Under the pieces are notes generated by a model, which did not search any database, was not told where the DNA came from, and saw only the letters and a program-made list of their open reading frames with translations. DNA of 64,000 nucleotides from Candidatus Thorarchaeota archaeon. Its GTDB lineage: Archaea > Asgardarchaeota > Thorarchaeia > Thorarchaeales > Thorarchaeaceae. A program made the translations under genes and the position numbers. How positions within the stretch are numbered: position 1 is the first letter of the stretch; every line of letters starts with the position of its first letter. Shown piece by piece: positions 43,431 to 46,873 of the stretch. The stretch spans positions 2,531,445 through 2,595,444 of the forward strand of contig CP070761.1 in NCBI GenBank assembly GCA_020348985.1, in the 5' to 3' direction.

Positions 43431-45248
43431 CTAGGATTCGTCGTTCTTGGAGCTCTGACTGTCAAGGCGATTGTTCTCTTCAGATACACCATCATCTGTA
43501 GGTACTGTGTCGAGAATTCCCAATGCCCTTTCGAGGTCTGTACGCATCTTATCATCAAGATCTTCCAATGGCTCTACCTCGCCGTCTAGAAGTACAACCT
43601 CCTCGCAAGAGAACGCTTCGAGGGCTGTTTCGAGTTCTTCTTTGGTTGCCTTTTCAATCTCTTCCGATACTAGATCGTCTGCATCAAGAGCCTCCGATAT
43701 CAGTGCGCGTGCCATCATCGATCCGTTTGATTCATCTGCGCTTGTCTCAATTTCGCTTTCTTCGATAAGAATAGGAACTGCCTCCTCAACTTCATCGTCA
43801 GATATAGTGACTACATCAAAGTCATCAGATGCTTCTACGGGGACCATCTCTGGTGCGATTCCTTCAACAACCACATCATCTTCAACAGCATCTTGGACTG
43901 GTATCTCGATTTCACGCTCCTCCAAATCGGCTGAAAGCGCAGCATCAACTTCAATGAAGAATTCCTCAATGGCATCCATTTCTGAGACATCCGAAACAAC
44001 AGGAGATTCTTCCGTCACAGCCGCCATGTGCTCTACAATCTCTTCTGTTACAAGATCCTCATCGAAGTGTTCAATCTCATCCTCAGCACCACCAACTTCA
44101 GGTACATCGGGGATAACAGAGGGTTCTTCAGCCACTACCTCGACAGGTTCCTCGAAAATTCCCTCGGCTTCTTCTGAGTCAGGCTCCACATCGACGTACT
44201 CAATAACTTCTTCAACGATTTCGTACTCATCTGCGTCCTCAATTATCCGACCATCTTCGTCAACGAGGATTTCTTCTACAATCTCAACTGTTTCGTATTC
44301 CTCTTCAACCTCTTCTTCTGAAACAGCAGAGGCTATTACCGCAGCTGCTTCGACAGCTTCTTCTGAGAACTTGAGCAGCTCAGAGGCTGGAAGATCAGGC
44401 AACGCCACTCCGACATACTGCGCAGCAGCTGTCATTAAGATGCGAAGCATCTCATCTCGACGGCCCTTGTCAATTGCAACCATTGGATAGGTCGGAATTC
44501 CTAATATCTTCTGAACCACCTCAGGTTTCATAGCATTTGGTTTGTCTTGCTTGTTAGCTATTGCGAAGACAGGAACCTTGGGTGCATCTCGCTTTATCAG
44601 TTTGAGAATGTCTTTGCTGATTATCACATTCCTTAGGGTTGAATCGCACACGAGAATGATAACATCAGCACCGTGGAAATAAAACCGCCAGAGTGTTCGG
44701 AATCTCTCTTGGCCTGCGAAATCCCACAGAACGAGTGAGTAGTTGCCGAAACGGATGTTCTCGACAGTCTCAAGGTTGAGTGCGATTGTAGGAACGTATT
44801 GAAGGGGAGGTGTGTCACCCAGGAGGAGATGAAGAGTAGTTGTCTTCCCTGTACCGCCCTCGCCAACCAGCGCTATCTTCAGCCTAGTAACCACCGAAGG
44901 CTCGATTATCTCCTCGAATCTCTCAAGCACGCTATTTAGATCGGCTCTTTCAATCTCAATAGTAAGATCGTGGGCTGCTTTCTTGACACGGTCTTGAGTG
45001 CTGAGCTCATCTTCACCCTTGTCTGTGACAAACACAAGAATTGAATCATCATTAACTTCGCTGCCCATGAACTTGTTCTGATCGATCACCAGAGGAATAT
45101 CCTCTAGTGCGTCATGGTTTTCCGCTAGCTCCTCTCTTGTTGAAATGTATTCTTCAATCTCGCTGGCCCCCACCTCAACTGGCCAGTACTGAACAGATGA
45201 GAGAATCTCATTGTCGTCCAGTCGGATAAGGAAGGCATTATGAATCAT
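43431..45248 (-). CDS. Arf-like GTPase with N-terminal longin-like domain and ~300-aa acidic tail
   Basis: GEGGTGKTT, YVPTI, WDFAGQERFRTLW, NKQD; E/D/V-rich C-terminal half. Confidence 0.8.
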   Translation of the reverse strand: MIHNAFLIRLDDNEILSSVQYWPVEVGASEIEEYISTREELAENHDALEDIPLVIDQNKFMGSEVNDDSILVFVTDKGEDELSTQDRVKKAAHDLTIEIERADLNSVLERFEEIIEPSVVTRLKIALVGEGGTGKTTTLHLLLGDTPPLQYVPTIALNLETVENIRFGNYSLVLWDFAGQERFRTLWRFYFHGADVIILVCDSTLRNVIISKDILKLIKRDAPKVPVFAIANKQDKPNAMKPEVVQKILGIPTYPMVAIDKGRRDEMLRILMTAAAQYVGVALPDLPASELLKFSEEAVEAAAVIASAVSEEEVEEEYETVEIVEEILVDEDGRIIEDADEYEIVEEVIEYVDVEPDSEEAEGIFEEPVEVVAEEPSVIPDVPEVGGAEDEIEHFDEDLVTEEIVEHMAAVTEESPVVSDVSEMDAIEEFFIEVDAALSADLEEREIEIPVQDAVEDDVVVEGIAPEMVPVEASDDFDVVTISDDEVEEAVPILIEESEIETSADESNGSMMARALISEALDADDLVSEEIEKATKEELETALEAFSCEEVVLLDGEVEPLEDLDDKMRTDLERALGILDTVPTDDGVSEENNRLDSQSSKNDES

Positions 45249-45378
45249 CCTTCAAGGTCACCAGCCAGATTTCACAAGTCAATTGCGAATCAGCAATCCA
45301 TCTGTGTTGAGATATGGATAAATCGATTGACATGTATCTAATAGTTTGTGGTGTATATGTCCTATTGAGCGTCTGTTA

Positions 45379-45703
45379 GACTAGCTCAAATTCGTAAGTA
45401 GGAGCGGGGCTCGCCCAGCCGAAGCTGATAGTGGCGAACCGTATCCGCATCCGTGACACGCTTTCATCGGAGCATGCGAAAGAACTCAGTTCTTTATGCG
45501 CAAGTATTGGAGTGGCAATCTCGGGGAAGATGCCACAGGGGACCAATGCTTGGAAACTCGCTAGGGGGACCGTGCATTGCAGTGCGAGTTTCCATGACGG
45601 GGGGAAATCGCACATCCCGATAAGAGCAGTCAACATGAAGAGAGGCATACTGGCCTAATAACCTTACTCCCCTTCACCTAGTGGAACCGCTTGAACACTA
45701 GCC
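45379..45703. ncRNA. Large (~320 nt) highly structured intergenic element, probable ncRNA
   Basis: TGGAAACTCGC/GCGAGTTTCCA (11 bp), AAAGAACT/AGTTCTTT, GTGGCA/TGCCAC, CAGC-CGAA-GCTG, CTAGTG/CACTAG, plus end-to-end pairing. Confidence 0.55.
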
Positions 45704-45712
45704 AGGGCAGTT

Positions 45713-46873
45713 TTACCGCGGGAAGTTGTCCCTCAGTAGTCTCAGATGATGGTGGACAAGCTCCATCTGCTTTGCGTCGTCAGGAGTCTTTTCAAGCTCC
45801 ACGATTAAAGTCTGAAGGAAGTATTCGGGGAAGAATAATCGCACACGAATATCGTTAAGCAAGAAGAGCCATTTATCGTACTCGCCAGATGGTCCCTTTC
45901 TTCTCTTTTCGGAGACTACTCTGAATTTCTTTAGCGTCTGAACGGCTGTTTTGAGCTCCTTCGGAGGAATGCCCAGGGTAGCTTCTAGTTCGGATATATT
46001 CACTGGCCTACGTCGGAGGACTACTAGCGTGTCGTAGGCATCGGGATCAGCCAAGATTGAAGCAACTGATACAGTATCCTCAGGTGTCTTTTTCCATTCT
46101 GTGAGGAATTCGAGTACCTCTCGTTTGTACTCAGCGGCGAGTTCCGGATCCAGAACCTGATTTGCAGCCTCCATCGCCATCAGCGGAGGAGCACGGAAGA
46201 CTTCTAGGTCCTTTATCATGAACACACAGGTCCGGCCAATTTCGTCGACCCATTCACTCTTGACAAGTCCGAGTTCCTCAAAGGGTGAGAGGATCGAATC
46301 GACACTGACGCTTGGAAGACCAGTTACCATCTTCAACCATTCTTCTAGCTCTTCTTTGGATATGCCACCCTTCCAGAGCTTCGGAAACACGGCCCTAGAG
46401 ACTTCCTCTGAAAAGAGACGAGCTAAGCGGCTCTCATCAGCCATTCCCGCGAGCCGGATGATCCTCCTGTAGGTGTTATCAAGCTCGCCCTGCAGCTCTG
46501 CATCAGTCATAGAAATTACTGCATTAGTTATGGGTGAGACGACCGATGTTATGGCCGCCTCAAACATCTTGGGGTCTTCGCCTGTTGTAAGAAGCAGTGA
46601 GATGCAATACTGCTCCTCTTCACGAACAATACCAGTATAATATGATGCAACTTGGTATTCCTCTCCCCCAATCCTGACGCTCAGTGATGCAAAACCTGCA
46701 GTGGCGTCTCCCATGGCGTGAGATGTGAAGATCCTCATAATCTCTGTGTTCAAGTCCTCTCGGTATCCATCCGCAAAATTCGCGGGCACCTTAGTCTTGA
46801 GGACTGCTCCGATTTTGCTATCCCAATCTATCAACAAGAGGGCTACGGGCAAGTACAGTATCTCCTTGTCCAT
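45713..46873 (-). CDS. Longin/uDENN-like N-terminal domain protein with winged-helix domains
   Basis: LLLIDWDSKIGAVL...P start resembles NPR2/DENN-type longin folds; HTH-like C-terminal segments. Confidence 0.55.
   Translation of the reverse strand: MDKEILYLPVALLLIDWDSKIGAVLKTKVPANFADGYREDLNTEIMRIFTSHAMGDATAGFASLSVRIGGEEYQVASYYTGIVREEEQYCISLLLTTGEDPKMFEAAITSVVSPITNAVISMTDAELQGELDNTYRRIIRLAGMADESRLARLFSEEVSRAVFPKLWKGGISKEELEEWLKMVTGLPSVSVDSILSPFEELGLVKSEWVDEIGRTCVFMIKDLEVFRAPPLMAMEAANQVLDPELAAEYKREVLEFLTEWKKTPEDTVSVASILADPDAYDTLVVLRRRPVNISELEATLGIPPKELKTAVQTLKKFRVVSEKRRKGPSGEYDKWLFLLNDIRVRLFFPEYFLQTLIVELEKTPDDAKQMELVHHHLRLLRDNFPR

Follow-up and report, generated by a model that had tools for sequence, protein, structure and literature searches.

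A probable gene for a structured non-coding RNA of about 250 nucleotides in the archaeal family Thorarchaeaceae

Background

The 64,000-nucleotide stretch of DNA analysed here, hereafter called the window (G000:C1:2531445-2595444), comes from a genome of the Thorarchaeaceae, a family of Asgard archaea listed as Candidatus Thorarchaeota in public records. Within the window a spacer of 464 nucleotides (nt; positions 45249-45712) separates two open reading frames (ORFs) of the minus strand, one of which encodes a GTPase, and this spacer is the site of the RNA element that is the subject of this work. A preliminary description, made from the sequence, had proposed a multi-helix RNA of some 320 nt at this place, either a novel large non-coding RNA (ncRNA) or a very divergent housekeeping RNA, and had left its strand ambiguous.

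Large RNAs that combine a complex fold and strong covariation with few invariant nucleotides are rare, and have historically been ribozymes or the cores of ribonucleoproteins (RNPs). Asgard archaea are the closest known relatives of eukaryotes, and to our knowledge almost no such large structured RNAs have been described in them. A full-text search of the literature on non-coding or structured RNAs of Asgard archaea or Thorarchaeota returned nothing that describes the RNA reported here.

In this work we studied the distribution, the fold and the genomic setting of the element and weighed the explanations that could account for it. We conclude that the spacer very probably contains an independent minus-strand gene for a stable, highly structured ncRNA of about 250 nt.

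Methods

Homologues were searched with two covariance models, R1, built from 9 sequences, and R2, built from 13 sequences in the minus-strand reading and comprising 37 base pairs. Covariation was counted in an alignment of 51 sequences made with R2, the pairs being taken from the structure stored with the model alignment. Twenty public sequencing runs (19 of DNA and 1 of RNA) hold part of the stretch, all as contigs, a form of data that is silent on strand, transcript ends and expression level; nothing follows from those parts of the stretch that lie outside the single RNA contig.

Results

The element was found in nearly all genomes of the family. R1 had a match in 78 of 86 family genomes, counting this one, and R2 in 78 of the 85 others, distributed over 15 of 16 genera, most of them with one full-length match; the matches were 195-268 nt long (median 232). 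BLASTN alone detected homologues in four genera. For two family genomes that are nearly complete but gave no filtered match, a search with the filters off showed divergent or split copies in both. In the first, the copy lies on a separate short contig and scores 24.9 bits; in the second, the syntenic place is occupied by a highly divergent candidate, the H1 (helix 1, see below) of which pairs perfectly over 13 bp. The 24.9-bit copy of G017:C90 (L111:904-1187) is a divergent member with a larger insert in H3; it lies about 750 nt past the end of the upstream gene, inside which the contig starts. The only other family of the class gave no R2 match in the one genome searched (0/1), and 124 genomes from 25 further families of the phylum gave only chance-level rows (E >= 0.015 per genome). 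The distribution is thus housekeeping-like and essentially single-copy and, as far as searched, the RNA appears to be confined to the Thorarchaeaceae.

Read on the minus strand, the 254-nt RNA folds with a minimum free energy (MFE) of -92.5 kcal/mol (z = -4.33), a value that none of 200 dinucleotide shuffles equalled, and the MFE structure holds all the helices listed in Table 1. The helices named in the preliminary description are all present in the sequence: the hairpin at 45480-45495 is H4, the compound hairpin at 45502-45551 is H3 with H3a, the hairpin at 45416-45427 is H7a, the loop of which reads cUUCGg on the minus strand, and an 11-bp helix (45551-45561 with 45584-45594) was recovered as the 10 bp of H2. 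We add to them H1 and the 3' hairpin H6/H7 (45401-45415 with 45433-45452). The extent had been set too wide, the RNA running from about 45634 to 45381, that is, about 250 nt and not 325.

Covariation strongly supports this structure. Standard pairs occupy 94.0% of the 1774 cells in the 37 pairs (51 sequences), against 79.4 +/- 0.5% when partners were shuffled among sequences and 35-48% when they were slid by 1-3 columns. Changes on both sides were seen in 33 of the 37 pairs, in 283 cells where 76 were expected, the covariation score was 0.473 compared with 0.210, and none of 500 shuffles reached any of the five measures. Taken helix by helix, such changes affect 13/13 modelled pairs of H1, with 92% of the cells pairing, 7/9 modelled pairs of H2 (94.8% paired) and 11/11 pairs of helices 5-7, corresponding to H6/H7 (93-96%). 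In the most divergent homologues, L089 and L092, H2 has a wholly different sequence that is fully compensated and still pairs. A plain MAFFT alignment gave, in its H1b and H2 columns, the same pattern as the model-fitted one. RNAalifold, run on diverse MAFFT alignments, returned only H2 or spurious long-range pairs, and worked only on a subset of 13 sequences.

Table 1. Features of the RNA locus, in minus-strand order from 5' to 3'
Feature	Position	Strand	Basis or remark
Right-hand ORF, 386 amino acids (aa)	45713-46873	-	Upstream of the RNA; no Pfam family
BRE/TATA-like putative promoter box, GGAGTAAGGTTATTAGG in the minus-strand reading	45654-45670	-	Conserved box upstream of the RNA in nearly all 51 loci
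RNA, about 250 nt	45381-45634	-	R2 match 45381-45632, 163 bits, E 4e-50
H1, 5' strand, AUCGGGAUGUGCGA	45608-45621	-	14-bp helix closing the multi-branch 5' domain
J1/2, C-rich single strand, UUUCCCCCCGUCAU	45594-45607	-	Holds the nearly invariant CCCGUC
H2, 10 bp (45584-45593 with 45552-45561) and 22-nt loop	45552-45593	-	Covariation
H3 (45543-45551 with 45502-45510) and H3a	45502-45551	-	Formed when the 254-nt RNA is folded
J3/4, GCGCAU, part of the nearly invariant ACUUGCGCAUA	45496-45501	-	Invariant alignment columns
H4, variable hairpin	45480-45495	-	Absent in genus g4
H1, 3' strand, UCGCAUGCUCCGAU	45466-45479	-	Partner of 45608-45621
3' domain H6/H7/H7a, one long hairpin	45401-45452	-	Covariation, helices 5-7
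3' tail, UACUUACGAAUUUGAGCUAG	45381-45400	-	Pyrimidine/U-rich tract after H6 in most of 51 homologues
Left-hand ORF, 605 aa	43431-45248	-	Arf/Roc/Ras-type GTPase domain (Pfam)

In its general layout the RNA consists of a 5' domain, in which H1 closes a junction with three arms (H2, H3/H3a and H4), and of a separate 3' hairpin. The loop of H2 carries ACGGUCCCCC (plus-strand GGGGGACC at 45564-45571), and it holds ACGGUCCC. H3 contains a conserved C.A mismatch and an internal GGUCCCC (plus-strand positions 45538-45544); its apical hairpin H3a (45512-45536) differs in length between genera, and only two H3 pairs entered the model. Ahead of the 3' domain stands the invariant ACGGAUGCGG (plus-strand CCGCATCCGT, 45445-45454), itself preceded by a variable linker or hairpin. 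Within this domain, H6 pairs 45445-45452 with 45401-45407, with one bulged U, H7 pairs 45433-45440 with 45408-45415, and H7a spans 45416-45427. A two-state pairing of the 5' strand of H2 with the H1/J1-2 segment was considered and rejected, with a mean duplex energy of -3.8 kcal/mol against -10.4 kcal/mol for the native helix and no sign of conservation (mean z of -0.7; z < -2 in only 10/50 sequences).

Several short motifs stand out from the drifting helices. CCCGUC, whose columns are invariant in one alignment (A6), is present in 47/51 RNAs, compared with 0.10 per RNA after shuffling, and UUGCGCA in 43/51, compared with 0.02. GGUCCC occurs 2.0 times per RNA (range 0-4; 0.08 after shuffling) and UCCC 3.5 times (1.4 after shuffling).

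Part of the RNA recurs in G002, a genome of the same genus, where two extra loci (L011:1400-1700 in G002:C112 and L012:1400-1700 in G002:C304) contain about 100 nt nearly identical to the main RNA, comprising ACGGUCCCCC of the H2 loop and all of the H3 module as far as CUUGCGCA. The flanks of these loci are unlike those of the main RNA and are conserved between the two. They may represent a shorter paralogous RNA or a chimeric repeat; this metagenome-assembled genome is rated 7% contaminated.

The strand on which these features are to be read is indicated by the counts of G.U and A.C pairs, the UUCG loops, the folding z score and the promoter box, all of which point to the minus strand. In the minus-strand reading the modelled pairs include 236 G.U against 17 A.C, or 194 against 17 when one invariant U.G pair is left out. 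In MAFFT columns untouched by the structure model, a plus-strand reading gives 25 A.C and 2 G.U in H2, and 15 and 8 in H1b. A.C pairs are thus in excess on the plus strand and G.U pairs on the minus strand, so that a step between A-U and G-C passes through a wobble pair in the minus-strand reading only. The cUUCGg apical loop of H7a recurs on that strand in several genera. The plus strand of the same 254 nt gives a z of -1.98, and its MFE structure loses H2.

The box upstream of the RNA (consensus AAC(C/T)AGRAAG(G/C)TTC(A/T)TATG) resembles a transcription factor B recognition element (BRE) joined to a TATA element, and lies after a T-run that comes behind the upstream gene. Where the locus is shortest, 17-22 nt separate the end of the box from the conserved core; elsewhere a variable extra 5' hairpin fills the gap. 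In 17 family genomes the SRP (signal recognition particle) RNA genes have ..(A/C)A(A/T)(C/T)GTTTTTAGG about 22 nt before their 5' end, and the RNase P RNA gene of this genome has a similar box, GAGAAGTTCTTAATG. As judged from sequence, the minus-strand box thus resembles the promoters of the SRP and RNase P RNA genes of the family. Because of the promoter spacing, the 5' end of the predicted RNA is placed at about 45632-45636, and its 3' end would lie at the pyrimidine/U-rich tail, which is likely the termination zone.

Just past this tail, 45364-45384 can form an 8-bp hairpin with a 2-nt bulge (GAGCGTCTGTTAGACTAGCTC), not seen in the other same-genus genome checked, which may be a local terminator feature. 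The stable-RNA promoters of the family are recognisable by a purine-rich BRE-like stretch together with GTTTTTAGG or CTTTAATTC about 22 nt before the SRP RNA 5' end (SRP RNA loci L023-L042; L002:1431-1500), and could serve to find further unannotated RNA genes.

The public RNA data contributed one contig, from a marine-sediment metatranscriptome. It contains, between adapter remains, a 142-nt insert that covers 45479-45620 at 99% identity with a depth of 5.6 and extends into neither flanking gene, which gives a weak hint that the RNA is expressed.

We then considered the genes on either side. The gene for the 386-aa protein lies upstream of the RNA on the same strand in 50/50 other loci, is 80-90% identical across genera, and is usually separated from the RNA by 100-280 nt, in a few loci by 800-1250 nt. 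An AlphaFold model of the protein (predicted local distance difference test score, pLDDT, of 89) shows an N-terminal alpha/beta domain followed by two helix-and-strand units. Its best matches in the PDB are weak (E 1e-3 to 1e-2) and correspond to the longin/winged-helix subunits of GATOR1, SEAC and FLCN-FNIP, so that the assignment of a longin and winged-helix, NPRL2/FLCN-like architecture is suggestive only; neither the predicted fold nor these PDB matches gave a sign of RNA binding. Homologues of this protein at about 30% identity come from organisms named Njordarchaeota in public records.

On the other side, a homologue of the GTPase gene lies downstream of the RNA on the same strand in 47/50 loci, mostly after a gap of 70-250 nt. 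The 605-aa protein contains an Arf/Roc-type G domain at residues 122-260, with a weak Pfam match to SRP receptor beta, between an N-terminal part of about 120 residues and a long C-terminal part, neither of which has a Pfam match. In genera g7, g5, g12 and part of g11 (L049, L050, L052, L064, L066, L074, L065, L083 and L092) the homologue is found about 1.1 kb from the RNA and is only 40-47% identical, as measured over the first ~120 residues; either an inserted gene or a different paralogue would account for these loci, and in g7 the gene lying in between is on the opposite strand. In the window a promoter-like box near 45308-45327 precedes the probable start of the GTPase gene. ARAGORN predicted no tRNA in the window.

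A genome of the sister family, G025, offers a comparison. Its orthologous gene pair (62% identity) is only 124 bp apart (L104:2647-2770), and the AT-rich spacer contains TATA-like runs and no RNA, from which the RNA gene may be taken as a family-specific insertion between two partner genes. It looks like a gene set between the two, and not like a leader that the GTPase gene needs.

This bears directly on the possibility that the RNA is a cis leader of the Arf-like GTPase gene, riboswitch-like or protein-binding, with the H1 junction as a sensor and H6/H7 with the U tract as a terminator platform. The strand and order shared by RNA and GTPase gene in 47/50 loci, and their short gap in most, would suit such a leader, as would the resemblance of the 3' hairpin and following U-rich tract to an expression platform. 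CGCAU in J3/4 could also pair alternatively with AUGCG of H6, although all the bases of this pairing are invariant. However, the GTPase gene is set apart from the RNA by a second conserved promoter-like box (..GATTATCTCATAAG, minus strand), the GTPase homologue is distant in the four genera named above, with an opposite-strand gene intervening in g7, and the sister family keeps the gene pair without the RNA. A riboswitch or leader is expected in the 5' untranslated region of the gene it regulates, with no intervening promoter and a constant downstream gene; here a promoter-like box intervenes, and in several genera the downstream gene is 1.1 kb away. We therefore consider a cis leader unlikely.

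The constant upstream neighbour raises a similar question, namely whether the RNA belongs to the 3' untranslated region (UTR) of the longin and winged-helix mRNA, as a stabiliser, a localisation signal, an autoregulatory binding site or a processing element. That the RNA comes right after this gene, in the same orientation, in 50/50 loci agrees with this idea, and winged-helix domains can bind RNA, as in La and SelB. Such an element would nevertheless have to be reconciled with the T-run and the conserved BRE/TATA-like box that lie, in this order, between the stop codon and the RNA, with the gaps of 800-1250 nt, and with the sister-family orthologue, which has no such element. There is in our opinion only a small chance that the RNA is a part of this mRNA.

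The RNA could further be a catalytic RNA of a new class, a free-standing ribozyme or the like, with the invariant nucleotides of the junctions serving as an active site and not as binding sites. A small number of invariant nucleotides in the junctions, next to helices that covary freely, is typical of ribozymes and of RNP RNAs, and the element, a large RNA of many helices, has this appearance. It showed neither a known ribozyme signature nor an Rfam match, though. Of two candidate pseudoknots, the pairing of CCGU with ACGG consists entirely of invariant bases and is broken, uncompensated, in one genus, and that of UUGCG (J3/4) with CGCAA (H2 loop) is lost in genus g5. The GGUCCC repeats, with their varying copy number, look more like repeated binding sites than like one active site. 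A catalytic RNA thus seems improbable.

Several observations weigh against an independent, trans-acting minus-strand RNA and have to be set against the evidence above. The alignment used for covariation was fitted to the model structure and its sequences are related, so that the numbers lean towards structure. The linkage to the upstream gene in 50/50 loci would also suit a cis role. Words complementary to the conserved loops are not enriched genome-wide. The sole RNA-library contig could be contaminating DNA, and carries no strand, end or abundance information. The remaining points concern the strand: the MFE of the two strands shows no preference over 49 homologues (mean difference of 0.6 kcal/mol), the conserved C.A mismatch of H3 would be a U.G pair on the plus strand, all homologues have an excess of purines on that strand (G>C, A>U), and T-runs on the plus strand follow the right-hand promoter motif in many loci. 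These last three features would be expected if the functional transcript were the plus strand, with a promoter near 45354. The TATATG at that position, noted in the preliminary description for the plus strand, is not conserved, whereas the conserved box reads on the minus strand, from 45670 to 45654, and matches the stable-RNA promoters of the family at the expected spacing. With the pair counts of the fitted and the unfitted columns also favouring the minus strand, and with the lesser z and the loss of H2 on the other, a plus-strand transcript is very unlikely.

Known RNA families were also compared. The absence of RNase P and SRP signatures noted in the preliminary description is borne out: no Rfam family matched at its gathering score in the window, and the 4227 models of Rfam 15, RNase P and SRP included, gave no match to the element at E <= 10 with permissive filters on both strands of 45150-45850. 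The sole row at this threshold was a chance hit of 16.5 bits to a fungal small nucleolar RNA at 45172-45256, inside the GTPase ORF. The fold and covariation model contain no RNase P-type terminal P1 stem or P4 pseudoknot of the conserved regions CR-I and CR-V and no GAGGAAAGUCC- or ACAGAA-type motifs, and on both strands there is no SRP helix 8 with a GNAR tetraloop, no AGCA/GGAA internal loops and no long helix 5. Inspection of the 51 sequences by eye, with no dedicated program, revealed no conserved ACA after hairpins and no conserved C/D boxes, the marks of H/ACA and C/D box guide small RNAs.

The genome has a full-length RNase P RNA elsewhere (G000:C1:992421-992761, 160.1 bits for a cut-off of 84). 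SRP RNA (RF01857) was matched in 39 of 41 relatives, including both other same-genus genomes, always on another contig than the element (in G001 on C36, the element being on C81). In this assembly the Archaea_SRP model gave no match at E <= 10, and the same-genus SRP RNA matches no DNA here either. This absence carries no weight because the "single 3.16-Mb contig" consists of about 131 pieces joined by 100-N spacers and is 86% complete; most likely the piece with the SRP RNA was not assembled. The argument that the SRP RNA is missing and that the element must be it was rejected on this ground, and on that of the relatives, which carry their SRP RNA elsewhere. The size of the element and the missing SRP match could be invoked in favour of an RNase P, RNase MRP-like or SRP RNA that has diverged very far. 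This reading can practically be dismissed, given that no RNase P, MRP or SRP model matches at E <= 10, that RNase P RNA is present elsewhere in this genome and SRP RNA elsewhere in the relatives, that the assembly is incomplete and that the 5' and 3' ends of the element do not pair in the way seen in those RNAs. Of the two identities first proposed, the novel large ncRNA is therefore the one that stands.

Small ORFs over the element (90 aa on the minus strand, 75 aa on the plus strand) were rejected as genes; Pfam matches none of them, and the strand that carries such ORFs changes from genome to genome. Indels in the element are not in threes. By these signs the element is non-coding, and the RNA would appear to be new, belonging to no described family.

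Discussion

The explanation that we favour combines an independent RNA gene with an action in trans, and as a whole we hold it with moderate confidence. Its mechanistic part is the more tentative: the RNA may be a trans-acting RNP RNA or a decoy RNA that displays GGUCCC motifs. Transcription would proceed on the minus strand from the RNA's own BRE/TATA-type promoter (45670-45654), and the transcript would end in the pyrimidine/U-rich tract after the last helix. The helices would form a scaffold that shows CCCGUC, two to three loop copies of GGUCCC(C), ACUUGCGCAUA and ACGGAUGCGG to a partner in trans, and the stretches GGUCCC, CCCGUC, UUGCGCAU and ACGGAUG would be single-stranded unless buried by the tertiary fold. 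Such a presentation, of the GGUCCC repeats above all, is suggested by five short single-stranded stretches that have stayed frozen as the helices changed by compensation. For the partner, a protein is the most likely candidate, giving an RNP; a decoy or regulator that binds G-rich RNA, in the manner of small RNAs (sRNAs) with C-rich loops, is less likely, since the complementary words are not enriched in the genome. The transcript ends, the action in trans and the partner are what we infer; the fold and its conservation are observed.

A more far-reaching proposal, to which we give a low probability, is that the RNA is a subunit or regulator of the flanking longin and winged-helix/Arf-SRbeta-like GTPase switch, or that it represents a new lineage-private class of RNP or ribozyme. 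The logic of such a switch would be like that of the SRP RNA, which speeds the GTPase cycle of SRP and its receptor (SR). If true, one Asgard family would possess an RNA-regulated longin-GTPase system, and thereby a new way of regulating small GTPases.

The RNA is present in nearly every genome of the family, behind a promoter of the stable-RNA type and inside a gene pair of eukaryote-like design, which makes it a concrete target for work on the Thorarchaeaceae. With two covariance models and an alignment of 51 sequences it is ready for deposition as a new RNA family. Even if it were only a lineage-specific regulatory RNA, the annotation of about 80 genomes would be improved and a false lead on a missing SRP RNA removed.

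Among known systems, the RsaE/RoxS-type sRNAs, whose C-rich loops pair with G-rich sites, share with the element the display of repeated UCCC-containing motifs in loops. The element is much larger and more elaborately folded, its motif is longer (GGUCCC), and words complementary to it are not enriched; we know of no archaeal precedent for this type of sRNA.

Like the element, archaeal RNase P RNA (RF00373) is a stable RNA of 250-350 nt and many helices, encoded in single copy behind a promoter; nucleotides of its junctions are conserved, its helices covary, and its promoter box in these genomes is similar. The element differs from it in having no match to the model, no P4-type pairing and no terminal stem, in coexisting with a canonical copy elsewhere and in being limited to one family. 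Archaeal SRP (7S) RNA (RF01857) is similar in size, copy number, promoter type and promoter spacing, whereas the element has no match to its model and lacks the long helix 5, the helix-8 GNAR loop and the AGCA motif, and the relatives have their SRP RNA elsewhere.

OLE, raiA, HEARO, GOLLD and ROOL are large orphan ncRNAs of bacteria that came to light by comparative genomics. The element is unrelated to them (all are in Rfam and none was matched), its host is an archaeon and it keeps a single syntenic position. As a discovery it is of the same kind, an RNA of more than 200 nt with a complex fold, strong covariation, few invariant nucleotides and a narrow range.

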